A stretch of DNA of 58,830 nucleotides, filler included, from Dugesia japonica (Eukaryota), in NCBI GenBank assembly GCA_001938525.1. It is 5 parts of 5 records of this genome, joined end to end, with 100 filler letters (N's around TTAATTAATTAA, not from the genome) between each part and the next. Parts side by side here need not be neighbours in the genome. Positions count along the whole stretch, not along the records: positions 10,205 to 27,971 come from MQRL01595632.1; 4 more parts are not named here. One strand, written 5' to 3'. Below are positions 12,860-38,665 of this stretch, piece by piece. Every line of letters starts with the position of its first letter. The stretch's first letter is position 1. The position numbers and the translations under genes were made by a program. The notes under the pieces were generated by a model, which made no database searches, was not told the origin of the DNA, and saw only the letters and a program-made list of their open reading frames with translations.

Positions 12860-13286
12860 AAATTATGAAAAATGTAAAATTTGAAAATTTGCTATTTTCT
12901 ATAAAAAATTCGAAATTTGAAAATGTGCTATTTTCTATGAAAAATTCGAAATTTGAAAATTTACCATTTTCGATAAAAAAATTCGAAATTTGTGAAACTC
13001 TGGGAAATNNNNNNNNNNNNNNNNNNNNNNNNNNNNNNNNNNNNNNNNNNNNNNNNNNNNNNNNNNNNNNNNNNNNNNNNNNNNNNNNNNNTATGAAAAA
13101 TGTAAAATCGAAAATATACCATTTTCTATGAAAAATGTAAAATCGAAAATATACCATTTTCTATGAAAAATGTAAAATCGAAAATATACCATTTTCTATG
13201 AAAAATGTAAAATCGAAAATATGAAAAATGTAAAATCGAAAATATGAAAAATGTAAAATCGAAAATATACCATTTTCTATGAAAAA
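12860..13286 (+). repeat. 35-36 bp tandem array, probable subterminal repeat of Polinton A
   Basis: Unit atgaaaaatgtaaaatcgaaaatataccattttct repeated with variants; resumes at 17767. Confidence 0.9.
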
Positions 13287-13935
13287 TGTTGGGGTGAAAC
13301 ACTCATTAACCGGGAATAAGGCCGGAAAACCAAAGCAACGGCAAAGAATAGCAGAACCACTGTCATTATCAATAATGAAATATAAAACATGTAATCATCC
13401 TTAGAAGAAAACGAATTAAAATCCAAGATGAATATGCAGAACAGGGTAACATAGAAGCAATTTACATTTGGAAATTAAGAAAAATTAATTAATTAATAAA
13501 AAACAACAAGGNNNNNNNNNNNNNNNNNNNNNNNNNNNNNNNNNNNNNNNNNNNNNNNNNNATTAATTTTAAAATAAAAAAGAAGCGAAATTAGTGGAAA
13601 ATCTGTTTTATCTAGATAACTTCGCCCAAGGAAGTCAGAAAAAAACCGGATAAGAAAAAATGCAAAGAAAACAACAAGATGCATTAGAATTGCGAAGAAA
13701 GGAAAACTTACCACCTTCCAGAATGTCGTTGTAGGGTTTCCAAGATCCGGCCAATAAGAACCCTAAAAATAAAAATATAACAAAGAACAAAAACTCACCT
13801 GACACTCTAAAAATAACCACCAACAGAATCTCAGAAAAGTCTGCAAAATTCGAGAAAAGTGGTACCAACACCAATAGAATCAGGTTATTTTAAATTAAAA
13901 ATAACCAGCAAATCTGGAACAAGTCTCAGAAATCA

Positions 13936-17510: not shown

Positions 17511-17766
17511 AAAATTTCTTTGTAAAATAAAATATATGAAATCAAAATTGTACTTTCTTTCTTTCGTTAATAATGATAGGGAAAATAATGAACCCGAATA
17601 TAAAGGTTTGTAGGTGTGTACCTCCCATTAAGAGAAGGGGTCAACCGCTATAAACTGAAAATCTATCACATGAACGATAGGTCAAATTCTTGAACGGGTC
17701 TCCCTGAGGGCTGTTTTTCTCCAGCCACCAACTTTTTTGTCACTCAACTCAGGTGAGATCCCAACA

Positions 17767-17860
17767 AAAATATAAAATCGAAAATATACCATTTTCTATG
17801 AAAAATGTAAAATTCAAAATTTATGAAAAAACTTTCGAATGCGGCATTTTCTATGAAAAA
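17767..17860 (+). repeat. Continuation of the 35-bp tandem array
   Basis: aaaatcgaaaatataccattttctatgaaaaatgtaaaat, identical to units at 13093-13286. Confidence 0.85.
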
Positions 17861-17977: not shown

Positions 17978-20900
17978 ATGGAACCAACAACATATCAATG
18001 TATCAAATGTAATAAAAGATTTTTAAGTAGATCGGGTTTTGTAACCCAAATGAAAACATGTGGTAAAAAAAATTATAAATTTGTGTGTCGAAAATGTAAG
18101 GATCGATTTAAAACACAACAGGCGCTAAATCATCATTTAAATTTAAATGTTTGTGTGCCACTATATTGCATCGCATGTAAAAAAAAAATTACCAATCAAA
18201 CAAGTGCGAAAAAACACTATCAAAAAAGATCACATAGAATAATTGAAGAGGATCTTACAGTTGATTTATTTGATGAACTTCCTGGAGAAAGAGTAGATGA
18301 AAAAATTATTACAAAATTGTTTATTGGTCCCGATTATGCTGATTTTATTATTTATTATTTAGATGATTGTGGAATTGAATTAAAAAAATTTATTGATGTT
18401 ATAAAAAGTACAGAATTTTATTATCAAGATGAGATTGAAAAAATTATTACAAAATATTTTAAATTTGGAAAAATATTTCATGTTAATGTTTCGGTGGAGA
18501 CAAAATATTCAAAAAATACAAATAATGTCAAAGAGGAAAGAAATTATAGATCTAATTCCTCCAATAAAAGAATAACAGTAGAAGAAAAAATTCCTGAGAT
18601 CACCCAAACACTATTAACAGATTTATTAACACAAATTAATGGGGATAAAAGTGAAAGCAGTTGGACATTAGATTATGTGGTTTATTATAAAATAAGACTT
18701 GGTCTTTATAAATCAAGGGCGGGCGGAACATATGTAAAATTACCATTTATTAAAAGAGGAATTATCAACATTGAAAACAAGGATAACAAATGTTTTCTCT
18801 ATTCAATTCTAGCACAAATATACATATGAACACCCAACACGAGTAAGCCACTATAAAAAACATTTAAATGAATTTGATTTAACAGGTGAAAATTTTCCAG
18901 TGGCAAATAAAAATATAAAAACATTTGAAAAAAATAATAATTGACAAATTAATGTTTTTGAGATTGAAAACCCAAATAAAATTCCAGAATCAACTCACAT
19001 TTCTCATTTTCTTTCTAAACCACCACAAAATGAAAATAAATGTAATTTCATTAAAATAAGATAAGGCTTCGATCAAAACAAAACAGGAAGCCTTATCTTA
19101 TTTTAATGAAATCTCAAATCCGATCAATGGTTAAGTCCAACAATTATTCTCACAATAATTGTAATTATAAATGTAATTTGTTACTTTATAAAAATTTCTT
19201 TGTGCTATGTAAAAACTTAAATACATATATTAGTCGACACGGAATGGAAAATTATTTATGTATAAATTGTATGAATGCATATTCCTCACAAGAAATAGTT
19301 GATAAACATCAAGAAAAGTGTGTTCATCAAAAACCAACAAAAATTAAATTTGAAAAAAAAAGAATTTCATGAGTTTTCAGATTTTAATTTTATGATAAAA
19401 CTTCCATTTGTTGTATATGGTGATTTTGATGCATGGACTGACATAAATAATAATAAGCAAAAACCAATTTCACTCGGCATTTATCTTGTAAGTAATCAAA
19501 AGCAATTAATAAAAACTGAATATATAAAATTCACAGGTGAAAATGTGATAAAAAAATTTTTTAGTATACCTAGAAAATTTAAATGAAAAAGTAGATGAGC
19601 TTATGGGGACAAATTTTATTAAACAACAACCAAGGATTTTAAATGATGAATGTTTTTACTGTAAGAAAACACTTGGGGAAAATCCAGAAGAAGTTTATAA
19701 CTTTTTTAGTGGAGAATTTATTGGACCAGCACATGAATTTTGTAATGAAAAATATAAAAAAATTAATAAAAATTTCTTTGTTCCATTCTACTTTCATAAC
19801 GCATCTGGTTATGATAATAATTTATTTTTTCGAGAACTTTTAGAAAAACACCAAGATGATATAAAAGGAATTATACCACACACAGACGAAGAATATATTT
19901 CATTTTCCTTTAAAAGAATTAGGTTTCTTGATTCATATAGAATGTGCGCCCCAGGTACATCAATTGAAAAAATAGGTGAAATTTTAAATAAAAATGATAA
20001 ATACCCACATTTAAAATTATTCAATTTAACAGCAAAAAAAATTGCATTTCCTTACGAATATTTAAAAGGAAATACTGTGGAAGAAGTTGAGCAATTATTA
20101 AAAAGTAATAAAATACCCACAAAGGAAGATTTTTTCAGCGCATTAAAACAAAAACATATAACTTTCAGAGAATATAAGAAATTTTTAAAAGAATTTTCTT
20201 AATTAAAAAATATGTGGGAACACAAGCTTCATTATTTAAAACTCGACGTTTTAATTCTTGTAGATTTTATGGAAAATCTTCGAGAAATTTGTATGAATTA
20301 TTACGAAATCGATCCATGTTATTGTTTCTCAGCTCCANNNNNNNNNNNNNNNNNNNNNATGAAATTTACAGGAGTAAAGTTAAGATATCCAAAACAAAAA
20401 AGTTATGAGTATTGTTTAAAAAATCAGCGAGGAAGTCGTGGTGGTGTATCCGCTGTTACGGGTGAAAGACAAGTTTTCCCATTTAATAAAAATATACTAA
20501 AGAGAAAATTTACTAAAGCACAAAAAGAAGATCTCTTAAAAATATTATAACGAGGAGAAGAAATTCCAAATAAATTTTTCGAGGAAACATTTTTAAAATA
20601 TTTGGATCAAAATTCTTTATATGCGGCATGTATGACAAAACCTCTTCCTACAGGGGATTATATTGAATGTGAGGATTTAACATATGAAAAAGCAACAGAT
20701 GAGTATAATTTCCTCTATGAGGTGGATTTAGATTATCCTCCTGAAATACACGAGAAAACAAGGTATTTTCCTCTTGCACCAGAGAAGTTAAATATTCAAA
20801 ATGAAATGTTACCTCCATATCAAGCCGATTTTCATAAAAAACTTCCACAGGATAATACAAAATTAACATTAAATCAATTTGATAAAAAAAATTATATAAT

Positions 20901-21904
20901 TCAAGGAAGCACTTTAGATTTATATCTTAAACTTGGAATGTTGTTGAAAAAAATTGTAAATATAAAATTAAAATTAAATATAAAATATAAATATAAAAAT
21001 TGTAAATATATATTGTAAATATAAAGTTCCAACAAGACCATGGTTGAGAGATAATATTCTCTTTAATATTGAAAAAAGAAATGGAGATGAGTTGGGTGAT
21101 TATTTTTTCAAGCTTTTAAATAATTCATTTTATGGAAAAAGTCTTGAAGATGTTTTTAAAAGACGGATTATTGAATTTGTTACATGTAATAAAGATTTTA
21201 AAAGAGTTTCAGCAAAATTATCATTTAGATATTTTAAAATATTTTCAAGAAAATTAGCAGCAATGCACATGCAAAAAAGTAATATTAAATATAATATATT
21301 TCTAATGATTGGTTTTGCTATTTTAGAATATGCGAAAGAGTTAATGTATAATTTTATATATAATCAAATGCAACCAATGATTGGAATAGAAAATTATAAA
21401 ATTCACTACACAGACACCGATTCATTATTTATAGAAATAATCGGGCAAGAAATTTTGGACAAGTTGTCAACATTATTTGGTAAAGAAATCTTTCAAATGA
21501 AAGATGAAATGCCAAACGCTGAAATTACACATGCAAATTTTATAAGGGCAAAATGTTATGCTTTTAATTATGTAGTAAATCTTTTAACTGAGTATTACAA
21601 TAGACACAAGGGTGGATCAAAATCCAACGACATACAAATGAAAGAGTATGACAAAATTTAAGAAAATGCCCAAGAAGTGATTTCTGGAATGAATTATACT
21701 TTAAAATCAAATAAGCATGAAATAGAATTAACTTCTCAAACAAAAATAATAATGAGTGCCTATAATGATAAAGTTTTGATTGAAATAAATGGAATTATAA
21801 CTTGGCCACATGGAAATCAATTTTATTGTGAGAGATGCGAAACATGGCACTTTAGATTAGATTTTTTATGGGAAATTTTAAATTGTCAAAATTGTGAAAA
21901 TTAA
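17978..21904 (+). pseudogene. Protein-primed family B DNA polymerase (element A), disrupted; N-terminal zinc fingers
   Basis: Three C2H2/C2HC fingers, INIENKDNKCFLYSILA, FHNASGYD, RFLDS, FPYEY, YLDQNSLY, KLLNNSFYGK, YTDTDS; split into ~8 pieces by stops, frameshifts, a 131-bp insertion and an AT expansion at ~20955-21020. Confidence 0.95.
19049..19179 (+). repeat. 131-bp hairpin repeat inserted in PolB
   Basis: 26-bp perfect inverted repeat (19045-19070 / 19087-19112); flanked by duplicated ataaatgtaattt; removal restores NENKCNLLLYKN. Confidence 0.85.
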
Positions 21905-22485
21905 ACTTTTAATTTACTTAACTCAAATTTAGGACTTTCAGCTTTAGATTTTAAAATTATTTCTTGAACTTCACGAATCATAGATTTACTTGTAGAAATT
22001 TCCTCATCTGTTAAAATATTATTATTCAAGGCCTTTTGTTGAAATATAAAATGTTTATTTTTAACCGCCTCTAATTTTACAATTAAATTACTATACTTCT
22101 TTTTCTTCTTTTGAATTAAAGATGAATTCAATGCACCGGTAATTGNNNNNNNNNNNNNNNNNNNNNNNNNNNNAGGAAGACCAATTGTAGTAATTCCTAT
22201 TCCTATAGGAGTTGCAAAAATTACACTAACTATGGCCACGCCGGTTCCAATTATAATTTGAGCCACTTTTATTCCATCATCGGTAGCGGCATATTTTGCA
22301 TAAAATTTTCGATAGTGTTTTATTTTATCATTTATAAAATATAAGTCATTTTCAAAATCTTTAATTNNNNNNNNNNNNNNNNNNNNNNNNNNNNNNNNNN
22401 NNNNNNNNNNNNNNNNTTCAAGTGTATTGGAATTTATTTCTTGCTGATAATTTTTTAAATCTGGATATAATGTTTCGTCTGCCAT
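21901..22485 (-). CDS. Polinton membrane protein with N-terminal LYPDL
   Basis: Homologue of 35164-35775; central Gly/Ile-rich hydrophobic hairpin; start placed at MADETLYPDL by alignment. Confidence 0.8.
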   Translation of the reverse strand: MADETLYPDLKNYQQEINSNTLEXXXXXXXXXXXXXXXXXIKDFENDLYFINDKIKHYRKFYAKYAATDDGIKVAQIIIGTGVAIVSVIFATPIGIGITTIGLPXXXXXXXXXXITGALNSSLIQKKKKKYSNLIVKLEAVKNKHFIFQQKALNNNILTDEEISTSKSMIREVQEIILKSKAESPKFELSKLKV

Positions 22486-22509
22486 TTTATATAGAAAATT
22501 TTTCATAGT

Positions 22510-23568
22510 TCATTTAATATTTTTTCTCTTTGATGAAAACTACACCTTTGAATAATAATAAGATTATTAATATAAATATTACCCGGCAAAATTAAATAAA
22601 ATTTTTTATGTCTTCCAACCCACCATTTTTTAAATTTTTACTATTTATTATTAATTTAAATTTTCCAAGTTTTTCAAAAATAAAATCTATAATTTCATCA
22701 GAACCAAAAATATTAACAATAATACTAATTCTACTTATTTTTGTATATCCACCAACAAAAATACACATTGGGGGAATATCATTTATAACTTTAAAATAAA
22801 GTTTAAAAGGATTAGTAAGAAAAAAAATCTTTTTCATTAAGATATTCCCAACCACCCTTTATTGTTACTTTTTCTAAAATTATAAATGATGATGTGAACT
22901 CGGAATAATATGGAAATCTATTTTCATTTTTTCGAAAAAATGCATTTTAAAAATCGCATATCCATCCTCATAAAGACTAATACCTTTATATAGTAAATAA
23001 TTATTAATTTATTCTTTTATTTTTTCTAATAGGTAGAGGGATTTATTTGTTTTATACATTTCTAAATCTTCATGAATTTTTTTACATATCGTGGGTGAAG
23101 AAGATTTTTTATTTTATTTATTTCCACCACCAAAAGAAATAAAAGATCATTTTGTTTTAAAATAGAAACTACTTTTTTTTAAAACTTCAACCTCATCTTT
23201 TATTTGGTAAAAAAANNNNNNNNNNNNNNNNNNNNNNNNNNNNNNNNNNNNNNNNNNNNNNNNNNNNNNNNNNNNNNNNNNNNNNNNNNNAATGGTTTTA
23301 AATTTACTTTCAATTTCTTCATCTTTGGTTTTTAATTTACTTTTTAATTTATTAAAAAATTTTGAATTTGCCACATCACGAATATTTAATTTACTGCATC
23401 AAGTTCATGTTTGGGTGGATCAATAATTTTTAAGGATTTAATAGTGTCACCAGTTTCGTTTACAAATCTTTTTTCATTGCTTGCATCTTGTATTCTTAAT
23501 TTAGCATAAAGAGCATTAATAATTTTTCTTTCATTCCTCGCCTGTGAACTGCGTCCATATGCGTTCAT
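22510..23568 (-). pseudogene. Fibre-like gene of element A, fragmented
   Basis: N-terminus NEKRFVNETGDTIKSLKIIDPPKHELDAVN matches 32843 ORF (NENKYVNETGDIISCLKIIEDPLDLHDAVN); same gene neighbours; stops and frameshifts downstream. Confidence 0.65.
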
Positions 23569-23989
23569 TTATTTCAGAAATAATTTCATCAAAAGATTTT
23601 TCTGGAAAGCTATACAGAAAATAAATACAAAGCACACCACAAATTTTTGTTTCAAAAGATTGAACCTGTTTTTCATTAAATTTTATAATGTGCTTCTCAA
23701 GATCTTCATGAAAAGGTTTTAAACCAAAAGAGTCAAAATAATGTTTATTTTTCGTAGCAACCCAATGAGCTCCTTTTTGATTTGAATTTTGATAATTAAA
23801 AATATAATTCATGTCATTTTCAAAATTTTTAGGTAACTCATTTTTCATGTNNNNNNNNNNNNNNNNNNNNNNNNNNNAAATTTCTAATGGAAATTTTAAA
23901 AAATTTGCAATGGAATAAAGATCAAAATTTTTAGTTGTTGTAATTCCAAATGTATTTAGAAAATCTAAAATTTTGGCATTATAAAGCAT
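23531..23989 (-). CDS. Adenain-like cysteine protease
   Basis: GAHWVA...YFDSFGLKP...QVQ...ICGVLCIYFL gives the His-Asp-Gln-Cys catalytic set. Confidence 0.92.
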   Translation of the reverse strand: MLYNAKILDFLNTFGITTTKNFDLYSIANFLKFPLEIXXXXXXXXXXMKNELPKNFENDMNYIFNYQNSNQKGAHWVATKNKHYFDSFGLKPFHEDLEKHIIKFNEKQVQSFETKICGVLCIYFLYSFPEKSFDEIISEINERIWTQFTGEE

Positions 23990-24625
23990 TTTCTTAAATG
24001 AATAATTAATGATATTGTTTCATTATTAAAACCAATAGGTTTTAAATTTTCATCAACAACTTCAAATCTTAGGGCATCAATTTAACTAGAAGATATTCTT
24101 GAGCAAATAGATCGTGATGGTCTTTCAATAATTTTATATCCAAAGCTTACAGTGTTTGTTGGAAATGAATATAATAAATTAGTTTCTTTATTATTTACAT
24201 AATTTCCCTTAACTAAAAGTCAAGTAATGTTAATTATATTTTTTCATCAGAATAATATTTTCCTGTGGTGTACTCTTTTGGTTTAAAACCTAAAAGTTTA
24301 CAAAAGAAAGATTTTTCATCAAATTTTAAAATTTTATTTTCGGGGATAATAAGTAAAGATTTAGCGGTTGATGTGTCTAAAGTTATTTCCATTCCAAAGT
24401 CTTTTAATTTCTCTGAAATTTCTTCAACCTTATAAGCACCAGGATGAATTTTTCTTTTTTCCCATTAAATGTAAAATATACATCTTCTCGTTCTACATTA
24501 AAAATTGTATTATAAACAGAAAGACAAATTAAAACAACTTCATATTCATCTTTCAAATCTAATGGTCTTTTTAAATTAACTTCTAATTTTGATCCTTTAC
24601 CAGTAACTAAAAACTTATGAGACAA
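23985..24625 (-). pseudogene. Minor capsid protein (penton-like), frameshifted
   Basis: PLDLKDEYEVVLICLSVYNTIFNV, LLYSFPTNTVSFGYKIIERPS, TISLIIHLRK; homologous to 31664-32342. Confidence 0.8.
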
Positions 24626-25452
24626 ATGTTTTTAAAATATTTTTGATATTTTTTATATTTCTCTTTTGAAATTAATTTTTCATTTTTTAATTTTTTACAA
24701 ACCGATTTTATTTCTGGGCCAACATTTTCATGACCAGCTTTTTTAGCAGAAAGTAAAACTACTAATTTTTCAAATAAATCTATTGGGAGTGCAGTACCTT
24801 CAATTGGTTCAATTTTTCTTCTTTTTCTTGCTTGTAATATTTTTTGTGGGAGTTTATCTTTAATCGTTTTATAATATTCACTTTTATAACCATGAGTAAT
24901 TTTTAATTTGTTGTAATAAATATCTACATCTTGCGAGTTTACATCATTAATTTCTTTTACATTTCCATGAATTAAATTCATTACTCCATCTGAATAAGGA
25001 ACAAGTGTATTTGGAATGATAAAAAAATATGGAATTTCATTTTGTTTAACTAAATATATTTCTTTTTCTTTAATTTTTATTTTTATATAAATTTTATCAC
25101 TAACAGTTTCATAATCGAGTTGAGGAAGTGTTGCTGCTGTAAAAAAATTTTTATTTACATTCATTTCTACATCTATTGAAGTAAATGGACTTTTATTTTC
25201 AAATGGATTTGTTGGTAATTTTATTTCTGGATTTGGAATTGGATTTATTGGATTTATTAGTAAACTGATTGGTTGTGCAGATTGTTGTAAAGCGGAAATT
25301 AGTGGAGATTGTGAAAAAGCAAGAGAAGAAAGAAGAATTTTAGATTGAAGAACGTTACTAGAAAAATATTCATTATATTTTTCTTCCTTTTCAATTATTT
25401 CTTTTAATTCTTTAATTCTTGATTCTAATAAAACATGAGTATTAATGACCAT
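24607..25452 (-). CDS. Conserved Polinton protein (probable core protein)
   Basis: 281 aa; C-terminal LFEKLVVLLSAKKAGH...EIKSVCKKLK shared with 30782-31651. Confidence 0.8.
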   Translation of the reverse strand: MVINTHVLLESRIKELKEIIEKEEKYNEYFSSNVLQSKILLSSLAFSQSPLISALQQSAQPISLLINPINPIPNPEIKLPTNPFENKSPFTSIDVEMNVNKNFFTAATLPQLDYETVSDKIYIKIKIKEKEIYLVKQNEIPYFFIIPNTLVPYSDGVMNLIHGNVKEINDVNSQDVDIYYNKLKITHGYKSEYYKTIKDKLPQKILQARKRRKIEPIEGTALPIDLFEKLVVLLSAKKAGHENVGPEIKSVCKKLKNEKLISKEKYKKYQKYFKNICLISF

Positions 25453-26026
25453 TTTTATAAGGTTTTAAATAAATTCCATCACCATCTTCACTATATGATT
25501 TTAAATATAATCCACCACCCTTTTTTAAATGTTTTGATGGTTTTAAATTTTGATTTTTTAAATATTTATAAATCGCTTTACCTTGTATTTCACTTATATA
25601 TTCTACTTCATTTTTATTTGTAGTAGGAATAGTAGGAGTAGTAGGAGTAGTAGAAGCAGTAGGATTTGGGATATTAGTATTAGTATTAGCATTAAGAGCA
25701 AGTTGTTTTTCTCGTTCCAACTTTTCATTTTCAAGTTTCTTGTTATAAGCCTCTCGCGATTTTGTAACGACGGATGCAACTGTACCAGTGACAGCTGCAA
25801 CTTTACCAACACCATCAAGAAAAGAAAGTAATGTAGGTATTAAAGCCAACAGTGGAATAAAAGCACCTTCTTTTTCTTGATGTTTTTTAATTTCTTCTTT
25901 TGCTTTTTTACCAATCCAATAATTTTTACCATTAATTTTAACTGTTTTACTAAGATTGGAATTTACTAATTTTCTTAATTCTTCTTCTGTAATATTCTCA
26001 CCCATTTTTCTAAGAAAAAAGATCAT
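25442..26026 (-). CDS. Adenovirus pX-like core protein precursor
   Basis: KEGAFIPLLALIPTLL...; GGGLYLKSY and GDGIYLKPY repeats; PT-rich linker; homologue of 30299-30772. Confidence 0.8.
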   Translation of the reverse strand: MIFFLRKMGENITEEELRKLVNSNLSKTVKINGKNYWIGKKAKEEIKKHQEKEGAFIPLLALIPTLLSFLDGVGKVAAVTGTVASVVTKSREAYNKKLENEKLEREKQLALNANTNTNIPNPTASTTPTTPTIPTTNKNEVEYISEIQGKAIYKYLKNQNLKPSKHLKKGGGLYLKSYSEDGDGIYLKPYKNGH

Positions 26027-26762
26027 TTGTCATTTCATTTGTTAATTGATTTAAATATAAATATGTGTATGGTCGTTTCCAAGTGTGATTTGTTTCATAG
26101 TCATAATCATTTTTATTATTAAATGCAGAAAAAAATAAATCACTATAAAAACTATCACGATCTCTTTTATTTAATCTAAAAAATATAAAACAGTTGCGGT
26201 TATTTCTTATTGAATTTTTATCAAGGTGAAAATATGTTTGGGAAATATAAATCACATTACAATTTGAATGACGACCTCGAGTGAAATAACTTTTTTGGGT
26301 TTCTTGCTTTTCATTTACCACATCATCAAAAATTACAAGATTTTTTTTATTCCTTTTTAATTTATCACAGCGTGTGATGTCTAATGGATTACTACTTAGA
26401 ATTACTTCTATTGATTGTGGTTTTTTTATTACAAATTTCTTTTGAATGAAAAAATCTACAATCTCTTTTGGAGTGTCACAGGAATTAGGAGCGATCGCTT
26501 GCTTCTTAAACATTAATAAAATTTCTTCTTTTGTTAATCCATTTAAAAATCCCTCTTTTAATAATTGCACTTCAAATTGTTTAATTGTAGTTGAATAAAT
26601 TAATAGATTATTATAATCAAGAAAACCGGGTGTAAGTAACATTTGTGTCAAGAGAAAATTTTTTCCACATCCAGAAGACCCAATTATCAACAATCGAAAA
26701 TTACTAGGAAAAAGTTTATTTTTAAAAATTACCTGGTCTTTTTTCCAAACAAAATTACTCAT
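26010..26762 (-). CDS. A32/FtsK-like DNA packaging ATPase
   Basis: GSSGCGKN, LVIFDD, FTRGRH, YISQ; start set at MSNFVW by alignment with element B (the upstream ATG overlaps the integrase). Confidence 0.93.
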   Translation of the reverse strand: MSNFVWKKDQVIFKNKLFPSNFRLLIIGSSGCGKNFLLTQMLLTPGFLDYNNLLIYSTTIKQFEVQLLKEGFLNGLTKEEILLMFKKQAIAPNSCDTPKEIVDFFIQKKFVIKKPQSIEVILSSNPLDITRCDKLKRNKKNLVIFDDVVNEKQETQKSYFTRGRHSNCNVIYISQTYFHLDKNSIRNNRNCFIFFRLNKRDRDSFYSDLFFSAFNNKNDYDYETNHTWKRPYTYLYLNQLTNEMTNDLFS

Positions 26763-26769
26763 CCTTTTT

Positions 26770-27971
26770 TTATAGAGAGGTTTTTTGTAACTCATTCTCA
26801 TAAAATCTTCCAAGAATTCTTTTCCCATTAAAATCTAAAATTTGAAATGTTGGTGGAATTGTTGTATAAATTTTTGTCACAGTATAAATTTTAACAGTCC
26901 ATTTAAATCTATATGGTTTTGCAAATGTTTTTTTAGTAAGAAATACTCTAACGCAATCTCCTATTTTTAATTTTGGTTTTTTATATATTTTATTTTGAAC
27001 TTGTTCTTTTGTTTTACCAGTTTTATATGCTTCTGTTTGAGTTGTTCCAATTGAAGAATGAATTGTGTTGTTGTAGTCATCTACTATTTTCTGTAATAAC
27101 TCAGGGGTGATTTGTTGATTTCCAACGGCAGTAAAATGTTTAAAGAGCTTCTTTTTAAATGTTCTATTAAATCTTTTAGTCTATTAAATCCCTCATTAAA
27201 AGTAGAATAACGGTTAATATTATTTTCTTCACAAAAATCAGTAAATGATGAATTGTAAAATTCTTTATCTTTATCAACCCATAAATTATTTGGTGTTCGA
27301 ATATTTTTATCTAGAATTTCTTCAAATGCATCAGCAACCACTGGACCGGTTTTATTTTTACAAAGTTCAACAAAAGCAAATCTTGAATAAAGATCAATCA
27401 CAGTTAGTATTACTCGTTTATTATGAAATGTTAAATCTGCTGACCAAGTTTCATCGGGTTCACTTACTGTTACTTTTAGAAATTTTCTCGGTTTTTTATA
27501 ATCGCGATGAAGCTTATCAGCCATTTCATTCGTTTCTGTCTCACTCGTTTGTCCTTTATGGTTCACTTCGTTCGTATTTTCTTCTAATTTTTTTATTTGC
27601 TTTAATTTACTCTGTCCTCGTAGACTTTGACCGATCATTAATTTTCCCTTCATTGCTAATTTTACGAGCATGCCTTGAAATCTTTCAGCTAATGTAGGAT
27701 CTTCAATTTCATTAATATCATGAATTAAATGTAAATCTGCAACGTGTTGATCTTTAAGATCTTTTGAATAATAAGCAAGATCGTGTTTCAGTGCTGCTGT
27801 GTCAATTCGATTAACTGGTTCTTCTCCTGGTAATGGGTTATTATTTTCATCAAGTCTAATATCTAATCGAGTTCCCGGTCCTGTATAATTATGTCCTAAT
27901 AAATGTCGTTCACCCGGATATTTTTCCCAAGTAATTGGTTTTAAAATATTACTAACAAAACTTGATTTTTG
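26770..27971 (-). pseudogene. PLA2-integrase fusion, 5'-truncated, one frameshift near 27185
   Basis: Manual translation is open from 27971: GHNYTGPGT...PVNRIDTAALKHDLAY, then in frame WSADL...VIDLYSR...WVD; after the frameshift IERFNRT...GRFYENELQKTSL*. Confidence 0.9.
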
Positions 27972-28015
27972 NNNNNNNNNNNNNNNNNNNNNNNNNNNNN
28001 NNNNNNNNNNNNNNN

Positions 28016-28027
28016 TTAATTAATTAA
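28016..28027. other. Artificial contig linker
   Basis: N-TTAATTAATTAA-N separating elements A and B. Confidence 0.95.
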
Positions 28028-28072
28028 NNNNNNNNNNNNNNNNNNNNNNNNNNNNNNNNNNNNNNNNNNNNT

Positions 28073-30286
28073 GATTTAATAATTGAAGATCCAGTTATAG
28101 ATCATAATCATTTTAATGGTGAATTTAGAGGTTATTCATGTAACACCTGTAATGTTAATGATCTTTCTATTAAAAATTTATTTATACCATTTTATTTTCA
28201 TAATGCATCAGGTTATGACAATCATTTATTCTTTAGAGAATTAATAACTAAATTTCCAAATAAAATAAAAAAGATAATACCACACTCATCTGATAATTAT
28301 ATTTCATTTCAATTTAAAAATATTAAATTCTTAGACTCAGCTAGACTACTTCCATTTACATCTGTAGAAGTAATGGGTAAATTATTAACATCTTCTAATA
28401 ATTATCCAGTATTAAAATCTTTCAATCTAAAACCTAAAAAAGTAATATTTCCATATGAATATGTAAAAGGTAATACTATCACTGAAGTAACTCAATTATT
28501 ACAATCAAGTCGAATACCAAAAAGAAAAGATTTCTTTAATACATTAACTCAAAAAGAAATATCTAAAACTGAATATTTTGAATTTTTAATTGATCTAACT
28601 AAATTTGAAAATTTATGGAATTACATGTTACACTATATGAAATTAGATGTTATAATTTTAACTGACTTCTTAGAAAATTTTAGAAATTCATGTTTAAATA
28701 ATATCCTAAAACTAGATCCATGTTATTCTTATTCAGCTCCAGGTTATGCATGGGAAACTGGAATGTTAAATGCAAATGTAAAACTTAAATATGCTAAATC
28801 TGAAACTTATAATATTTTCTTAACACTAGAAGAAGGAATNCGTGGTGGTTATTCTGGTGTATGTGGTGAACGTCAAGTATTTTCACATAATAAAATTAAA
28901 AATCCACATTCAAGACAATTGAACAAATCACAATATGAAGATCTAATTAAAATGATGAACACTCATGAATTTATTCCAGAGGATTATATTAATAATTTAA
29001 TGGAAGATACATTTATAAAATATTTAGATGAAAATTCTTTATATGCATCATGTATGACAAAACCATTACCAACAGGTGAAATGATTGAATCCAATGGTTT
29101 AATATATGAACCATCAAATGATAATAATAATTTTATATATGAAGTTGACTTAGAATATCCTAAAGAAATACATGATAAAACTAAATACTTTCCATTAGCA
29201 CCAGACAGAATAAATATTAGACCTGAGATGTTAAGTAAATACCAATTAGGTTTTAATAAGAAAATAACAAAAGATAATACTAAATTAACACTTAATCAAT
29301 ATGACAAGAAAAATTATGTATGTCTAGGTTCAACATTAGATCTATATTTAAAACTTGGTATGAAACTAATAAAAGTTCATAAGAAAATTAAAATGAATAC
29401 ATCATCATGGTTTAAAAATCATGTACACAAATTAATAACCTTAAGAAAAGAATCTAAAAGAATAAATGATGTATTTGGTGATTACATTTATAAACTTATG
29501 TTAAATGCATTCTATGGTAAAACACTTGAAAATATTAGAAATAGATGTAACATTGAAATTGTAGATAATGACAAAGATTATCAAAAGTTTGCGGCTAAAG
29601 TTAATTTTAAATCAATAAAAATCTTTACATTAAATGATTCAAATGAAGGTCATATAGCAGCAATGAATATGATAAAAGGAAAACTAAAATATAACAAATT
29701 TCCATATATAGGTTTCACTATACTTGAACATGCAAAATATGTAATGTATGATTTTATATACAATCAAATGAATCCATTAATATCTCAAGATAATTATAAA
29801 ATTCACTACAGCGACACGGATTCCATCTTTGTAGAAATAAAACATAAAGACAATCTTGATAAATTAAATACTTTACTTGGAAATGATTTATTTCAAATGA
29901 AAGATGAATTACCTAATAATGAAATAAATCAATGTAATTTTATAAAAGCAAAATCTTATGCTTACAGTTATGATACCCAAGGTTATGATTCTAGAAATAA
30001 AGGTGTAAAGAAAAATAATAAATTATTAATGAAAGATTTTAATTCAGTATTAGATGATTCTAAGAAAATAATTCATGGTACAAACTATTCATTAAAATCT
30101 GATTGTCATAATATTGAATTAGTAGAACAAAAGAAAATAGCTCTAATGGCATATGATGATAAGCGAATTATAGAAGATAACGGAACGGTAACATGGCCAC
30201 ATGGTAATCAATATTTTTGTGAAAGATGTAACATTTGGCATTTAAGATTAGACTTGATAAATAGGCAAAACCTAAATTGTTTATAA
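28073..30286 (+). CDS. Protein-primed PolB (element B), 5'-truncated
   Basis: Frame open from the contig start: VIDHNHFNGEFRGYSCNTCN, FHNASGYD, KFLDS, YLDENSLY, KLMLNAFYGK, YSDTDS, YDDKR. Confidence 0.97.
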   Translation, partial: DLIIEDPVIDHNHFNGEFRGYSCNTCNVNDLSIKNLFIPFYFHNASGYDNHLFFRELITKFPNKIKKIIPHSSDNYISFQFKNIKFLDSARLLPFTSVEVMGKLLTSSNNYPVLKSFNLKPKKVIFPYEYVKGNTITEVTQLLQSSRIPKRKDFFNTLTQKEISKTEYFEFLIDLTKFENLWNYMLHYMKLDVIILTDFLENFRNSCLNNILKLDPCYSYSAPGYAWETGMLNANVKLKYAKSETYNIFLTLEEGXRGGYSGVCGERQVFSHNKIKNPHSRQLNKSQYEDLIKMMNTHEFIPEDYINNLMEDTFIKYLDENSLYASCMTKPLPTGEMIESNGLIYEPSNDNNNFIYEVDLEYPKEIHDKTKYFPLAPDRINIRPEMLSKYQLGFNKKITKDNTKLTLNQYDKKNYVCLGSTLDLYLKLGMKLIKVHKKIKMNTSSWFKNHVHKLITLRKESKRINDVFGDYIYKLMLNAFYGKTLENIRNRCNIEIVDNDKDYQKFAAKVNFKSIKIFTLNDSNEGHIAAMNMIKGKLKYNKFPYIGFTILEHAKYVMYDFIYNQMNPLISQDNYKIHYSDTDSIFVEIKHKDNLDKLNTLLGNDLFQMKDELPNNEINQCNFIKAKSYAYSYDTQGYDSRNKGVKKNNKLLMKDFNSVLDDSKKIIHGTNYSLKSDCHNIELVEQKKIALMAYDDKRIIEDNGTVTWPHGNQYFCERCNIWHLRLDLINRQNLNCL

Positions 30287-30298
30287 TTAAAATAGCGA

Positions 30299-30772
30299 AT
30301 GAATCCAACAGAAGAAGAATTAGAATCTATAGTTAATTCTAAAAAATGTAAATCTGTAAAGATCAATGGTAAAAATTATTATATTTCTAAAAAAGTTAAA
30401 GATGAACTTAAAAAACAATCGCATAAAGGTGGATTTGCATTTCTAGCAGCAATACCAGCAATTATAACTGCATTAGCAGGAACTGCAGGTATTGCATCTG
30501 GTATTGCAAGTACAGTTGCAAATTCTAGAGATGTAATTAAAAAACAAAAAGAGATTGATATATTAAGTGCTAAACCTGAAACTAAAAATGAAGGTAAAGG
30601 TTTATATCTTAATCCTTATCAAGGTAATGCATTACACAAATATTTTAAAAATATTAATCCAGAGATGAAAGATCTAACAAGAAACTTTAAAGATGGAATA
30701 CAAATAACTAAAAGTGGAAATGGTTTATATTTAAATCCATATAATCCTAATAAAGAAAATAGAGAAGAATAG
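30299..30772 (+). CDS. Adenovirus pX-like core protein precursor
   Basis: HKGGFAFLAAIPAIITALAGTAGIAS resembles the pX C-terminal GG|ILPLLIPLIAAAIGA.PGIAS segment; GxGLYLNPY twice. Confidence 0.82.
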   Translation: MNPTEEELESIVNSKKCKSVKINGKNYYISKKVKDELKKQSHKGGFAFLAAIPAIITALAGTAGIASGIASTVANSRDVIKKQKEIDILSAKPETKNEGKGLYLNPYQGNALHKYFKNINPEMKDLTRNFKDGIQITKSGNGLYLNPYNPNKENREE

Positions 30773-30781
30773 CCTACAGAC

Positions 30782-31651
30782 ATGAACACTGAACAAGTTA
30801 ATAAAAGAATTGAAGAATTAAAAGCTTTAATTAAAGCTCAAGAAAAATATAATAACTTTTTCTGTGGAAATGTAATTGATTCACGAAATATGCAAAGTAC
30901 TTTATCTGTANNNCAAAAACCAACAATTACAGCTATAGAAAAAAGTCAAATTATTAAACCAATAGAAAAATCATTAGATTCAACTAATCTAACAAAATTC
31001 TTATCTAATGAAAATGTAATACCTTTTATTCCAGAATATTCAATTGAAGATGTTAATGCAACTGCAGATTTAACTCAATCAATTATTCCTAAGTTTTCTG
31101 AATTAAAAATTACTGGTGTTGATATCATAAAAAGTTTTATGGAAATAAGTTTAAAAGATAATAATATTTATTTATTTTTTCAGGATGATATTAATTACTT
31201 TTTATTTAAATCTGAAGTTATTCCATATTCTGATGGAATATTTAGAATGATAATAGGAAATTTAGATGGAAAAGAAACACCTGAAGAAATTGAGATATAT
31301 TTAAAATTTATATCTCCAATACCAACTAATTGTAGTTATGTTACTAAATTAAAAAATAAATTTAGAAAAGTAGAAATTATAAAACCTAAAAGAACAACAA
31401 CAAGAAAAGTTAAACCTAAACTAGAATTTGAAACAGAAAAATCAGAATCAGAATATTTAACAGAAAAAGAAGGACAATCACTCAATCCTATTGCATTATT
31501 TGAAAAGTTAACATTATTAATTTCAGCTGTAAAATCTGGACATGATAATCTTAATGAAGATATTAAAACAGTATGTAAAAAACTAAAGACTCTAGCTTTA
31601 ATATCTAACATAATTTATGATAAATATAAAGCTAAATATTTTCGTAAATAA
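30782..31651 (+). CDS. Conserved Polinton protein (probable core protein)
   Basis: 289 aa; homologous to 24607-25452 at N-terminus, PYSDG and C-terminus. Confidence 0.8.
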   Translation: MNTEQVNKRIEELKALIKAQEKYNNFFCGNVIDSRNMQSTLSVXQKPTITAIEKSQIIKPIEKSLDSTNLTKFLSNENVIPFIPEYSIEDVNATADLTQSIIPKFSELKITGVDIIKSFMEISLKDNNIYLFFQDDINYFLFKSEVIPYSDGIFRMIIGNLDGKETPEEIEIYLKFISPIPTNCSYVTKLKNKFRKVEIIKPKRTTTRKVKPKLEFETEKSESEYLTEKEGQSLNPIALFEKLTLLISAVKSGHDNLNEDIKTVCKKLKTLALISNIIYDKYKAKYFRK

Positions 31652-31663
31652 ATATCTAAGGAC

Positions 31664-32342
31664 ATGTCTCATCAATTCTTAATAGTTGGTAAAGAACATG
31701 AATTAATTATGGATTTAAAATATCCTATAGAATTAGATTCAGAATATGAACTTGGATTNNNNNNNNNNNNNNNNNNNNNNNNNNNNNNNNNNNNNNNNNN
31801 NNNNNNNNNNNNNNNNNNNNNNNNNNNNNNNNNNNNNNNNNNNNNNNNNNNNNNNAATAAAAGAAATATCAGATAAATTAAAAACTAAACATGAAATAGA
31901 AGTCATTCCAGATACATCAACAATAAAGTGTAATTTAATAATCCTTAAAGAAGATTTAACTTTTGATGATAAATCTTTCTTCTATAAGATCTTAGGTTTT
32001 AAACCTGGAACATATAAAGTAGGAAAGTATTATTCAGATAATAAAATTNNNNNNTCAAATATTAACATGATAAATGTAACATGTAATATTGTTAAAGGTA
32101 ATTATGTTAAATCTGATAAAAATGAAACAGAACAAATAAATCTTTTATATTCATTTCCTATAAATTCAGTTCCATTTGGTTATAAAATATTAGAAAGACC
32201 ATCTACTTGTATTTATTCTAAAATTAATACAAATTACATATCAAGATTGAAATTTAATGTCATGGATGAAAACTTTAACACTATAGATTTTAAAAATGAA
32301 ACTATTTCAATATTAGTACATCTAAGAAAATATAGACATTAG
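31664..32342 (+). CDS. Minor capsid protein (penton-like), spans an N gap
   Basis: YPIELDSEYELG...ILGF...INVTCNIVKG...LYSFP...GYKILERP...DENFNTIDFKNETISILVHLRK. Confidence 0.85.
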
Positions 32343-32345
32343 AAT

Positions 32346-32398
32346 GGTGCCTTTTATATTTCCAAGGCACTGGTGCCTTTCTAAGGTCCGGTGCCTTT
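32346..32398 (+). promoter_or_regulatory. Triple GGTGCCTTT motif with an inverted copy
   Basis: GGTGCCTTT at 32346, 32372, 32390 and AAGGCAC at 32364 in the penton-protease spacer. Function inferred only. Confidence 0.4.
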
Positions 32399-32439
32399 TT
32401 AAATATTATTATTTTAGATTTTACATAATAAAAATAGCA

Positions 32440-32850
32440 ATGTATAATTTATTAGACTTTTTAAAAACATTTGGAATTAACACAACTACAAATTTTGATT
32501 TATATTCAATTGCTAACTTTTTAGAATTACCTTTAGATATTTATATGAAAAATGAAATCCCTGACAAATTAGATAATAATATTATTTTTAATTATCAAAA
32601 TGAAAATCAAAATGGAACACATTGGACATGTTACAGTAATAATTATTATTTTGATTCTTTTGGTTTAAAACCTTTAGATAAAATATCTGAACATGTAAAA
32701 CTTTATAATGAAATTCAAGTTCAACATTATGGAACTAAAATATGTGGTGTATTATGTATTTACTTTTTATATTCTATTCAACATGAAACATTTGATAATA
32801 TTATATCTGAGATGTTAACACTTTATAATTCATTATTAGAAAATGAATAA
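32440..32850 (+). CDS. Adenain-like cysteine protease
   Basis: GTHWTC...YFDSFGLKP...QVQ...ICGVLCIYFL; start at MYNLLDF by alignment to element A. Confidence 0.92.
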   Translation: MYNLLDFLKTFGINTTTNFDLYSIANFLELPLDIYMKNEIPDKLDNNIIFNYQNENQNGTHWTCYSNNYYFDSFGLKPLDKISEHVKLYNEIQVQHYGTKICGVLCIYFLYSIQHETFDNIISEMLTLYNSLLENE

Positions 32851-35160
32851 GTTTGGTGAAAGTTTAAATATATTAAATACTACACAAATATTAAAAAAGG
32901 TAGATGCTAAATTTAGAACTACAGATGCAACAAATGAAAATAAATATGTAAATGAAACAGGTGACATAATTTCATGTTTAAAAATAATTGAAGATCCTTT
33001 AGACCTCCATGATGCAGTTAATTTAAAATATATTAAAACTCTAGAAGATAAATTAAAGACTCATGAATTAGTTTTTACAAAATTACTAAAACTAGACAAA
33101 ACTGAAATTAACAAATTATATTTAACATATAAAGCTGATCGTTTAAATAATCCAGTGTTAAATGATAAAATTAAAAATCTTACAAATAAATGTTCAGTAA
33201 CGAAATATACAGATATTACAACTGAAATCTCAAGATTAATATCTGAAATATTTCCATTAAAAAAATGTGATCTAATTGATAAATTTAAAACTATAACTCG
33301 AAATGATCTAAATAAAAAATTAACTAAAGATGTTAACATGTTACATGATAAACTTTATAATTTACATGATAATATAACTAAGAAAACATTTGATGAAAAT
33401 ATGAATCTTATTAATATACTTAAATCAGAAGTGGAAAAGTTTAATCTAAATATGAATATTATAAAAAATGAAATTAAAAAAATAAAACCTAAATTACACA
33501 AAATACAAATTAAGAGAATTAATGAATTATATGAAAACTATAAAGAAACACTTGATATAAAAAATATAAAATATTTCATTGATAATTATTTACAGTATCA
33601 TAATAATGATAATTTTTTTGAATATGATTATTATATATTTGAATTTGTTTATAGGGGGGATTTTATTCCATATATTAATATTAATGATAAAACTACTTAT
33701 ATAGAGAATATAGAATTTGAAAGAGGTAATTTTTTTTATAAAAATTCAGATTTTTTTTATAATGAAAAAAACTTTAGTATTTTTTTATATACAAAGATAA
33801 ATGATGAAGTTTTTATAAAGTTATATGTAACTCTTTCTTATAACTTTTCTATTAAAATTAATAATATCAGAAAGACATTTAAAAAAGATAGTAATGAAAA
33901 TAAAGTCATTAATGATAGCTCTGAATTCACGAAAGATAAAAATATAAATTATATTGAAATTGTTTTCTTTAAAGGAACTGGATTTAGGAATTCAATTATT
34001 ATTCCAAAAAAAGATTATTATTTTAGTAAAATGAATAATTTGTTTAAAGATATAAAAAAAGAACTTCATAAATTAGATTTTGATAAATTTAATGGTCTAT
34101 TAAAAAAATATAAAGAAAAATTTGAATATGATACATTTAAAGCTTTTTTTAAATTGTGTGATATTTTTTTTTTTATAAAAAAAATGAAAACCCCGATATA
34201 TTATTTAAAATTAAATGGTATCAAGAAGCTTTTCTTGTAATTCCTTATTTTAGTTATAATGATAAATATATTTACAAATTTGATTTAAAAAGAAAGAAAA
34301 GTAATGTTATAAATATTGCTTTACATACCATAATTAAAAGAAGAGTCAGTATAAATATAGATGGCGCCTGTAGGATAGAAAAATTTACATATACCATTAA
34401 AATAAATATTATTGCTGTAGCATTTTTATGTATTCCAAAAAAAATCACTATGGCTGACTATGTAGATACTATATATAACACTTATATAAATAATGGTAAT
34501 AAATTTAACATTTATAGAGAAACTGAAGAAAAAAATATAAAATATATTGAAATGGTTTTTCCAGAAGAAGTTGAGATAATAAATTTAAATATTAAATTTG
34601 CTGAATATAAAATTCCAGATGAATTAAATAAAGAATATGAAAGAATAAAACCAAAACTTCACAGGATTCAAATAATAAGAATTGATCTTTTAATAAAAAC
34701 TTATTCTGAAAATGAGAATGAGTTCGTTCTTAAAAATATAAAAGATTTAATTGATAATTACTTACCATTTAAAAATGAAAAAGTTTCTAATTTGTTTCAT
34801 CTAATTATCACAGATGAAAATCTTCCGTGTTATTATATTAATGAAAAAGTTGAAAGTATAAATTTTAAAAGAAATGGTGTAATAAATAAAGATTATATAC
34901 TTCCATATTTTTATCTTAAAGAACCATTTATTATTTCTATAAAAACATATTTACCATATAAAAATATATATATTTTAATAACATGTCACACTGGTGATTT
35001 TAAATATAGTATTAAAATAAATAACACTTTACATGAATATGTTGATAAAACATCTCAGTTTTTAAAATCATTTAGTGGAAATATAAACTTTATAGAAATA
35101 ACATTTCCTAAAGGAATTCTTCTTTATAAAATTTTAATTTTAGATAAAATTTCTACATAG
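32843..35160 (+). CDS. Fibre-like protein with three repeated domains; one -1 frameshift at ~34170
   Basis: ORFs 32843-34240 and 34450-35160 join because the second frame is open back to ~34175; repeated KPKLH.IQI.RI...IDNYL...SIKINN...NINYIEI.F.KG domains. Confidence 0.7.
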
Positions 35161-35163
35161 AAA

Positions 35164-35775
35164 ATGGACACTGAAAGTATTTATCCTAATTTGTCCAATG
35201 ATAGAAATGAAAACTTTACAATATTAGATTTAAAAAATAAACTTGCATTATCTAGAATTAGAGATTTTGAAAATGACTTGTACTTTATTAAAGATAAAAT
35301 TAAACATTATAAGAAAATACATAAAAGATGGAACATGATAGATACAAATATAAAATATACACAAATAGGTGTTAGTGTTGGAATTGGAATTACAGGAATT
35401 ATATTAATTACTCCAGTTGGAATTGCAATAACGGCTGTTGGTATACCAGTGATTACAGGTGCAATTTCCATGTTACCTGTAATTGGAACATTAAATACTT
35501 CACTTGTTAAATCTAGAAAAGAAAAGTATGAAAAGTTAATTAAGAAATTAGAATGTGTTAAAAATAAATTATTCTTATTTCAACAGAAAGCAGTACACGA
35601 TGAAATATTAACTGATGAAGAATTAATGATCAGTAAAAATATGGTTAATGAAGTTCATGAGTTGATATCTGGACATAAAAAAGAAAAGTCTAAATCTGAT
35701 GAAAAAGATTTTAAATTATTAATTGAAAATCAAAATAGAATAATTAATGAAATGCGCCTTAAGCTTGGAATGTAA
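35164..35775 (+). CDS. Polinton membrane protein with N-terminal IYPNL
   Basis: 203 aa; long hydrophobic hairpin; C-terminal QQKAVHDEILTDEE shared with element A. Confidence 0.85.
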   Translation: MDTESIYPNLSNDRNENFTILDLKNKLALSRIRDFENDLYFIKDKIKHYKKIHKRWNMIDTNIKYTQIGVSVGIGITGIILITPVGIAITAVGIPVITGAISMLPVIGTLNTSLVKSRKEKYEKLIKKLECVKNKLFLFQQKAVHDEILTDEELMISKNMVNEVHELISGHKKEKSKSDEKDFKLLIENQNRIINEMRLKLGM

Positions 35776-35799
35776 TTACAAATGAAATTAAAATTAGGT

Positions 35800-35863
35800 A
35801 TGTAAAATATTAGATGTAAAATATTAGATGTAAAATGTTAGATGTAAAATGTTCGCATGCGAA
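35800..35863 (+). repeat. Short tandem repeat (atgtaaaatattag x4) and palindrome ttcgcatgcgaa
   Basis: Seen directly in the intergenic spacer. Confidence 0.75.
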
Positions 35864-35906
35864 CAAAAAAAGGTTAATAGGATTAAATTAATTCTTTATA
35901 AAAAAG

Positions 35907-36488
35907 ATGTCATCAACAAGTGAAAGTAGTGAAACTGATTATGATGAAAAAAAAGAAAATTTAAGAAATAATAAATCATATTATAATTTATTTAATCAAG
36001 TTAAAAAACTATTTATAACAAAAGAAAAAAAAGATGAAATTTTACATATTAAATTAAATAATGGAAATTTAATATTTAAAAGTAAACCATTAAAAGAAGA
36101 TTTGTTATATTTAAAACAAATAGGAAATGAAAATAAAAAAGAAAGAAAAAATAAAAAAGAAATTAGAAAAAAAATACGTAAGTTAAAAAGAGAGAATAAA
36201 GATATTAAATTTATTACAAAAGTTTTTTATCCTAATTCTGAAGGCTTAAGAAATTATTTTGAAAATGAAAAATGTAATCATAATACTAATAATTTATTTA
36301 AAATAAATATAGGTGAAACATTTTTCATTTGTTGTAAAAATTGTAAACTTAATTTTGAAAATATATTACGTGAAAAATTTCCTAAACTTTATATTAGTCT
36401 TAATGAATATGTTAAAAATAAAGAAATAGAAATGAAGATTTTAAATAATGAAATACTTTGTATATTTGATGAAGAAACATCTGAAGAT

Positions 36489-36521
<33 letters not shown>

Positions 36522-37322: not shown

Positions 37323-37361
37323 GGGCATAAAGTTAAAATAGACCAACGGATTAACATAAAG

Positions 37362-38177
37362 TTAAAATAGATCATCTAACATCTCATCAGTTTCTTTATT
37401 TAAATAAAAATAGTTATATTTAGTTTTCCAATGTAAATTAACTTCATAATCATAATCTAACTTGTTATTAAAAATATTAGAAAATAATTCATGATAAACA
37501 TTATCTCTATCAGTTTTATTTAATTTAAAGAAAATGTAACAATTAGAATTATTTCTTATAGAGTTTTTATCGAGATGGTAATATGTTTGTGAAATATAAA
37601 TTACATTACAATTTGAATGTCTTCCCCGGGTGAAATAACTTTTTTGTACTTCTTGATTCTTTTCATTAACTACATCATCAAATATTATTAAATTCTTTTT
37701 NNNNNNNNNNNNNNNNNNNNNNNNNNNNNNNNNNNNNNNNNNNNNNNNNNTAATTAAGTTTTTCTTTTGTTTTGAAAGTTTATCACAAGAAACTATTTCA
37801 TTAGGTTTATTACTTAATGTAACAAAAATACTTATAGATTTTTTAGTTAATAATTTTTTATGTAAGAAATATTTAATAACTTCATTTGGAGATGTTAAAT
37901 GTTTAGGTATAATATTTTGCTTGTCAAACATTAAAGTAATTTCTTCTTTAGATAATCCATTTTCAAAACCTAAGTATAACAATTGAATTTCAAATTGAGA
38001 TATTGTTGTAGAGTAAATTATTAAATTGTCATAATCTAAAAATTCAGGTGTCAATAACATTTTCATTAATAATACATTTTTACCACAACCAGAAGATCCA
38101 ATCATTAATAGTCTAAAATTATTAGGTAATACTTTATTGTTAAAATGTGTAATGTTATTGTTCCAAATGTACGTCAT
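37362..38177 (-). CDS. A32/FtsK-like DNA packaging ATPase
   Basis: GSSGCGKN, LIIFDD, FTRGRH, YISQ. Confidence 0.94.
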   Translation of the reverse strand: MTYIWNNNITHFNNKVLPNNFRLLMIGSSGCGKNVLLMKMLLTPEFLDYDNLIIYSTTISQFEIQLLYLGFENGLSKEEITLMFDKQNIIPKHLTSPNEVIKYFLHKKLLTKKSISIFVTLSNKPNEIVSCDKLSKQKKNLIXXXXXXXXXXXXXXXXXKKNLIIFDDVVNEKNQEVQKSYFTRGRHSNCNVIYISQTYYHLDKNSIRNNSNCYIFFKLNKTDRDNVYHELFSNIFNNKLDYDYEVNLHWKTKYNYFYLNKETDEMLDDLF

Positions 38178-38206
38178 TTTGTCCGTAGGTCAAGCTTTGC
38201 TATTTT

Positions 38207-38645: not shown

Positions 38646-38665
38646 TTCTTATATTTTAATTTTGA

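Follow-up and report, generated by a model that had tools for sequence, protein, structure and literature searches.

A family of small, predicted hairpin membrane proteins, two of them encoded by Polinton-like elements, carries a conserved YPx[LI] motif in the variable leader that precedes its core, joined in part of the family by P[ST]AP, and we consider it probable, judging from these sequences, that the leader recruits ESCRT by binding the V domain of ALIX, the UEV domain of TSG101 or both. The family-wide feature would make the protein a late-domain membrane adaptor in a group in which we found none described. Two members were found in the window, by which we mean the whole stretch of 58,830 nucleotides of joined Dugesia japonica records that was analysed, and a six-frame scan of the window gave these two as its sole members of the family.

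The first, ORF A (21901..22485, minus strand), encodes a hairpin membrane protein of 194 amino acids in Polinton copy A and contains two N runs that are read as X; the second, ORF B (35164..35775, plus strand), is a complete homologue of 203 amino acids, free of N, in copy B. Translation gives MADETLYPDL as the start of ORF A, with the LYPDL motif (residues 6-10; 22456..22470, minus strand) clear of both N runs, and MDTESIYPNL as the start of ORF B, with IYPNL at the same residues (6-10; 35179..35193, plus strand). The two proteins are homologous, with 44% of residues identical in an alignment of 177 columns (E 7e-39), and in this alignment the sequences differ downstream of the motif while the core stays alike. 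Residues 65-115 of ORF B (35356..35508, plus strand) form the hydrophobic hairpin, which lacks Lys and Arg, reaches a Kyte-Doolittle peak of 2.43 and lies between long helices, with a net charge of +6 on each flank. The preliminary description had reported the shared motif, the divergence after it and the hairpin, and its observation on both ORFs is confirmed. A further in-frame ATG for ORF A lies 7 codons (21 nt) upstream, at 22506; the downstream ATG, which opens MADETLYPDL, has the better context and agrees with the starts of homologues. The chance of a YPxL in 15 random residues of the proteins' own composition is 0.001 for ORF A and 0.0006 for ORF B, with some background, since three of 43 ORFs in the window contain such a motif within their 40 N-terminal residues, namely ORF A, ORF B and an internal-Met fragment of PolB. 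No P[ST]AP occurs in ORF B or in the readable part of ORF A. Because ORF A and ORF B are not independent, the family is the real test of the motif.

Both ORFs lie inside Polinton-like copies that encode a protein-primed PolB, a packaging ATPase, an rve integrase and a protease, as assigned by Pfam, the protease weakly. These divergent copies, at 17978-28019 and 28028-38833, adjoin in a window made of joined records; they have at least eight homologous genes in common, in partly inverted order, and their best-matched genes are 44-66% identical at the protein level. In copy A, PolB is spread over several pieces (17978..21901, plus strand; PF03175, E 2e-5 on one piece), and it is followed on the minus strand by an adenain-like protease (23531..23989; PF00770, a weak E of 0.036) that is 58% identical to its copy B counterpart, an A32-like packaging ATPase (26010..26828; PF04665, E 8e-11) and a region with the rve integrase and a PLA2-like domain (26770..28019; PF00665, E 6e-9; PF08398, E 1e-9). 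In copy B we found PolB, whose 5' end is outside the assembly (28028..30286, plus strand; PF03175, E 6e-17), a protease homologue (32344..32850, plus strand) that matches the copy A gene at E 3e-49 and has no Pfam match of its own, and an A32-like packaging ATPase (37362..38177, minus strand; PF04665, E 2e-9). The region at 31652-32342 is one that we take to be a minor capsid gene. A major capsid gene gave no match in the 94 frames scanned (22, and 72 second-round frames picked out of 107 unscanned ones), and as both copies end in N gaps this does not amount to its absence. Of 195 inverted pairs, the 25 longest included no repeats that were recognised as bounding an element.

Several other features of the two copies were recorded. 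Copy A is decayed, with its PolB in pieces and a fragmented putative minor capsid gene (23968-24631), and ORF A is open wherever it can be read despite this decay. Its PolB has an insert near 19046-19174 with inverted matches at 2266-2534, and a family of 35-36 nt tandem repeats occurs at 12864-13303 and at 17762-17860, with copies just upstream of this PolB. At 27084-28019 (minus strand), the PLA2-like domain (PF08398) lies upstream of the rve integrase core in one frame; PLA2X has been described as PLA2 with a pX-like tail in the part of PMC8502044 available to us. Directly upstream of ORF B, the adjacent unannotated genes at 32843-34240 and 34450-35160 are paralogous (33% identity, 218 aa) and are possibly a fibre or receptor-binding pair. 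Downstream of ORF B, an unannotated ORF of 471 amino acids (35907-37322) has an internal tract of 12-15 nt repeats and Cys pairs, and a remnant of an LTR retrotransposon, with pieces of RT, RNase H and a CCHC zinc knuckle, occupies 38829-40590 (minus strand). Three RNA runs, of which 6-25% each was read, gave 24, 39 and 33 reads over 32100-37600, every one a partial match; no fully matching read was found in these portions, a result that is uninformative on active elements. In a contig run of uncertain type, summed depth was highest over ORF B, the protease and the ATPase, which we do not take as a measure of copy number.

Exhaustive phmmer comparison with representatives at 50% identity yielded 151 matches at E<=0.001, of which the 150 listed were used, and a profile built from 137 representatives recognised 2420 proteins among 8000 candidates. 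No informative protein name occurs among the profile-matched relatives. Pfam gave no match for ORF A or ORF B and no family common to more than five of the 137 members, a word-index search with ORF B alone gave no match, the best PDB match by sequence had an E of 0.03 and Foldseek against the PDB returned none at E<=0.001. Phage records contained no match to the family, and scans of viral contigs (also by way of the ATPase), a metagenome and genomes returned no homologue loci. The ESM Atlas offered two leads, both from queries that scored below its level of recognition: a cluster (0.94 to one family member) that is 58% viral, with Preplasmiviricota the commonest phylum (phylum known for 12), which is an indirect sign of a Polinton setting for homologues, and, near ORF B, clusters that are eukaryotic. 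A BAR-like role was rejected, as the best VIA-align Z of 9.7 to F-BAR domains lies within the range of generic helical bundles.

The leader was defined as everything N-terminal of the core, with the core placed by a core-only profile, and 129 of the 150 representatives were tested after the removal of 21 with leaders shorter than 15 amino acids. YP occurs in 115 of the 129 leaders, YPxL in 54, YPx[LI] in 91 and YPx[LIVM] in 100; the corresponding means over 1000 within-leader shuffles are 12.4, 1.1, 1.9 and 3.0, and the maxima 22, 5, 9 and 9. Outside the leader, YPx[LI] is present in only one of the 129 proteins. When the search bias was controlled by considering only phmmer matches whose best stretch begins no earlier than query residue 12 (93 matches, 72 with leaders), YP remained in 59 of 72 leaders and YPx[LI] in 41 (shuffle mean 1.1 for the latter). 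By column conservation in ORF B numbering, P8 ranks second and Y7 seventh of 203, while residues 9 and 11-15 have less than 0.5 bits each against a median of 0.95, which makes the motif a conserved island within variable linker sequence. The distance from the Tyr to the core ranges from 10 to 53 residues (n=98). Island conservation together with this flexible spacing fits the behaviour of a short linear docking motif. At position +3, Ile is found in 36 of the 115 leaders with YP and Val in 9, and at position -1 Ile is commoner than Leu; YPxI is bound by ALIX-type proteins, as in the PalA/PacC system. Two other patterns were rejected as family motifs, YPx3L (13/129 leaders) and PPxY (0/129). 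The conservation of YPxL on which the preliminary description had staked its proposal therefore holds in the broader form YPx[LI], among distant homologues whose median pairwise core identity is 25%.

The recurrence of P[ST]AP was unforeseen by the preliminary description and is new here. It is present in 23 of the 129 leaders (shuffle mean 0.10, maximum 2), in 18 of the 72 leaders of the bias-controlled set (shuffle mean 0.08) and in the C-tail of five more proteins, and both YPx[LI] and P[ST]AP are absent from 28 of the 129 leaders. Among the 25 carriers on a core tree (FastTree, 126 rows), P[ST]AP follows YP in 11, three of them from one clade, precedes it in 6, is fused with it as YP[ST]AP in 6 and stands alone in 2. 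The P[ST]AP label requires 16 changes on this tree, compared with a mean of 23.1 and a minimum of 18 over 300 label shuffles, which indicates some clustering of the carriers on a tree that is too poorly resolved to separate gains from losses. The top 120 profile matches form a single clade (58-69% identity among 12 aligned members) in which 118 have both motifs; being one clade, they are not 120 independent cases. In this dual-motif clade the variable site of PxAP is T in 80 proteins and S in 39, with no other residue, while flanking sites vary, and elsewhere in the family S or T occupies the site in 36 of 39 PxAP. A further 116 matches, mostly of the same clade, comprise 87 with both motifs, 19 with YPx[LI] only, 3 with P[ST]AP only and 7 with neither. 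Such T/S degeneracy is known for the TSG101 motif (PMC8402826, in part). With P[ST]AP recurring in the YPx[LI] leader, ESCRT recruitment is the best reading of the leader, and the strongest argument for it is that two unrelated motifs are aimed at one pathway.

For recruitment of cytosolic partners, the side of the membrane on which the leader lies matters. An uncharged stretch of at least 35 residues is present in 120 of 131 full-length relatives, and both flanks are net positive in 119 of the 131. By the positive-inside rule, according to which positively charged flanks stay in the cytosol, both tails are predicted to be cytosolic, and charge and hydropathy thus predict a motif on the cytosolic and not the luminal side, as the preliminary description needed it to be. 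AlphaFold2 models of ORF B (mean pLDDT 87.3; helices 16-82, 87-101, 104-146 and 151-200) and of a distant dual-motif member (mean pLDDT 89.0) agree in a non-helical segment of residues 1-15, followed by a long helix that leads into the hairpin, a helix that returns from it and a last helix at the C-terminus. The core is predicted to be a two-helix membrane hairpin of SLATT-like helical form. The leader has a pLDDT of 71-79 in these models, above that typical of disorder, and self-docking of the motif onto the core of the protein is possible. With both models, the best Foldseek matches are three invertebrate iridovirus proteins, S6DF61, A0A5B8RH66 and A0A068QKD3 (E 9e-5 to 2e-4 with the ORF B model; E 2e-7 to 4e-7 and 25-28% identity with the dual-motif model), which are probably homologous to the family. 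SLATT-named NCLDV proteins make up 8 of the best 50 rows with the dual-motif model (E 0.03-0.16). In Pfam, SLATT_1 had no match at threshold, its best E being 0.1 in one of 15 members, and SLATT is not among the 25 families listed of the 43 that match the 137 members. Ranid herpesvirus 2 ORF97 and several pithovirus proteins are weak Foldseek matches (E 0.02-0.1) and are possibly more viral SLATT-like proteins.

The layout of the family parallels that of bluetongue virus NS3, the non-lytic egress protein of a non-enveloped orbivirus. According to the available portions of the relevant papers, NS3 has 228 amino acids, two transmembrane segments, cytoplasmic ends, PSAP and PPRY, and a C-terminus that binds the outer capsid (PMC4452911); a size of about 200-230 amino acids, two transmembrane segments and cytoplasmic ends, both predicted here, and late motifs are common to both (PMC4452911; PMC13285319). 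In contrast to the PSAP and PPRY of NS3, the family is characterised by YPx[LI], accompanied in some members by P[ST]AP, and lacks PPxY in its leaders, and whereas capsid binding has been shown for NS3, the family is known here from sequence and models. In Foldseek, an orbivirus NS3 ranks 42nd with the ORF B model (E 0.76, TM 0.28), and we treat it as an analogue only. The available parts of two papers state that P(T/S)AP binds TSG101 and YPXnL binds ALIX (PMC8402826, PMC7923801) and that YPDL is the ALIX-binding late domain of EIAV p9 (PMC8402826). The YPDL of ORF A is exactly that of EIAV p9, and relatives pair the two motif classes as HIV-1 p6 pairs PTAP and YPXnL. In retroviruses the motifs are in the soluble capsid polyprotein, whereas the family has them in a distinct protein that is predicted to be integral to the membrane and is encoded by a DNA element. 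Toxoplasma GRA14 likewise spans the membrane, exposes PTAP and YPX(n)L to the cytosol and recruits TSG101 (PMC8700025, in part), but it is a parasite protein with C-terminal motifs that serves uptake and not virus exit, and no homology is claimed. Late motifs can also be dispensable: in the accessible text, those of GRA14 support the release of virus-like particles but not ingestion (PMC8700025), and the YPX3L of BK polyomavirus is reported to serve assembly and to be dispensable for vesicle secretion (PMC11281352).

The helix-hairpin-helix layout, as predicted, also likens the family to SLATT proteins. On maps of adintoviruses, some genes, which may belong to this family, bear the label SLATT (PMC8502044, including its Fig. 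S2, in the part available). For polinton-like viruses, SLATT genes have been proposed to encode pores for endosomal escape (PMC12220804) or lytic egress (10.64898/2026.10.13.758929) and are also listed in 10.64898/2026.06.19.733378 and 10.1101/2025.10.09.676808, and the bacterial definition is given in 10.64898/2026.04.29.721553, all seen in excerpt. The SLATT passages available from PMC8502044, 10.64898/2026.06.19.733378, PMC12220804 and 10.64898/2026.10.13.758929 make no mention of late motifs or ESCRT. Budding of a frog iridovirus uses ALIX, Tsg101 and Nedd4 (PMC4880917, in part).

The preliminary description had gone further and proposed that the protein recruits ESCRT for non-lytic or membrane-cloaked egress, and this interpretation is partly supported. 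Egress and other roles for ESCRT are not distinguished by the data, and we regard the export of capsids wrapped in host membrane, which we propose by analogy, as a purpose that falls just short of an even chance. The lack of P[ST]AP in ORF A and ORF B, the 28 leaders devoid of both motifs, the Ile and Val at +3, the leader pLDDT, the precedents of dispensable late motifs and the want of a major capsid match in copies that end in N gaps weigh against the proposal. The alternative that best survives, although we think it unlikely, is that the motifs do recruit ALIX or TSG101 for a purpose other than capsid budding, such as the sorting of a pore or cargo to multivesicular bodies or extracellular vesicles, the restraint or removal of a pore so that lysis is delayed, the remodelling of the nuclear envelope, or the dispatch of host membrane proteins to lysosomes. 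Every piece of motif evidence fits this alternative equally well, the core resembles the viral SLATT proteins, proposed pores, that recur among the Foldseek matches, and yeast Sna3, with two transmembrane segments and cytoplasmic ends, sorts itself to multivesicular bodies through PPAY (PMC4452911, in part). What speaks for egress instead is that in both copies the gene shares its strand with the protease gene and putative virion genes and lies close to them, and that two classes of late domain side by side are typical of budding proteins, according to the part seen of PMC7923801.

It is improbable that the motif is no ALIX ligand at all and that YPx[LIV] is a tyrosine-based sorting signal of the YxxPhi type, read by clathrin adaptor complexes, or a latch within the molecule or oligomer. 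In favour of this reading, the pattern fits YxxPhi, EIAV YPDL is also reported to bind AP-2, I and V are tolerated at +3, and the leader has a pLDDT of 71-79. However, a YxxPhi signal does not require Pro at +1, although P8 comes second among all columns in conservation; the spacing to the core varies; and the P[ST]AP motifs would be left unexplained, as would the six leaders in which YP runs into [ST]AP. Least likely of all is that the protein acts chiefly as a SLATT-like pore, for escape from endosomes during entry or for lytic exit, and that the leader motifs are secondary. The SLATT-like fold rows and published hypotheses of endosomal escape (PMC12220804) and of lytic egress or abortive infection (10.64898/2026.10.13.758929), as far as their available text goes, are in its favour. 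However, an entry pore delivered by the virion and acting from inside the endosome would gain little from ESCRT tags that face the cytosol and persist at about 25% core identity; a PLA2-like domain, the usual candidate for entry (PMC8502044, in part), is encoded by copy A as well; and SLATT membership is not established by Pfam.

In the ESCRT-dependent egress that we favour, the protein would insert into the plasma, endosomal or nuclear membrane, the last being a possible site should capsids assemble in the nucleus, as those of adenoviruses do. The leader would bind the ALIX V domain and, in the relatives with P[ST]AP, probably the TSG101 UEV domain as well. Capsids might be tethered by the helical cytosolic arms or the C-tail, and the bud might finally be cut away from the cytosol by ESCRT-III. 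We tentatively suggest that a widespread viral SLATT-like branch common to animal Polintons and invertebrate iridoviruses may have been turned from a pore into an ESCRT-recruiting egress adaptor.

In the text available to us, the exit of Polintons from cells is called open, as is the envelopment of those outside nematodes (10.1101/2023.08.22.554363). Among the best-ranked matches of our literature search, which covered few subscription papers, none linked Polintons, Mavericks, adintoviruses or SLATT proteins to ESCRT or late domains, and the co-mentions of 'polinton' or 'mavericks' with 'ESCRT' were general articles only, to the extent that these were accessible. With a gene, a pair of motifs of four residues each and two candidate host partners named, the question of how Polintons exit is now testable. 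Our results also offer a function other than that of a pore for the SLATT-like genes of eukaryotic DNA viruses, and flag uncharacterised iridovirus proteins as candidate budding factors. If the proposed egress is true, the family would be an NS3 analogue for double-jelly-roll DNA viruses, and Polinton particles would be quasi-enveloped on leaving cells that stay alive; such quasi-envelopment could explain both the scarcity of free virions and the passage of these elements between soma, germline and species.
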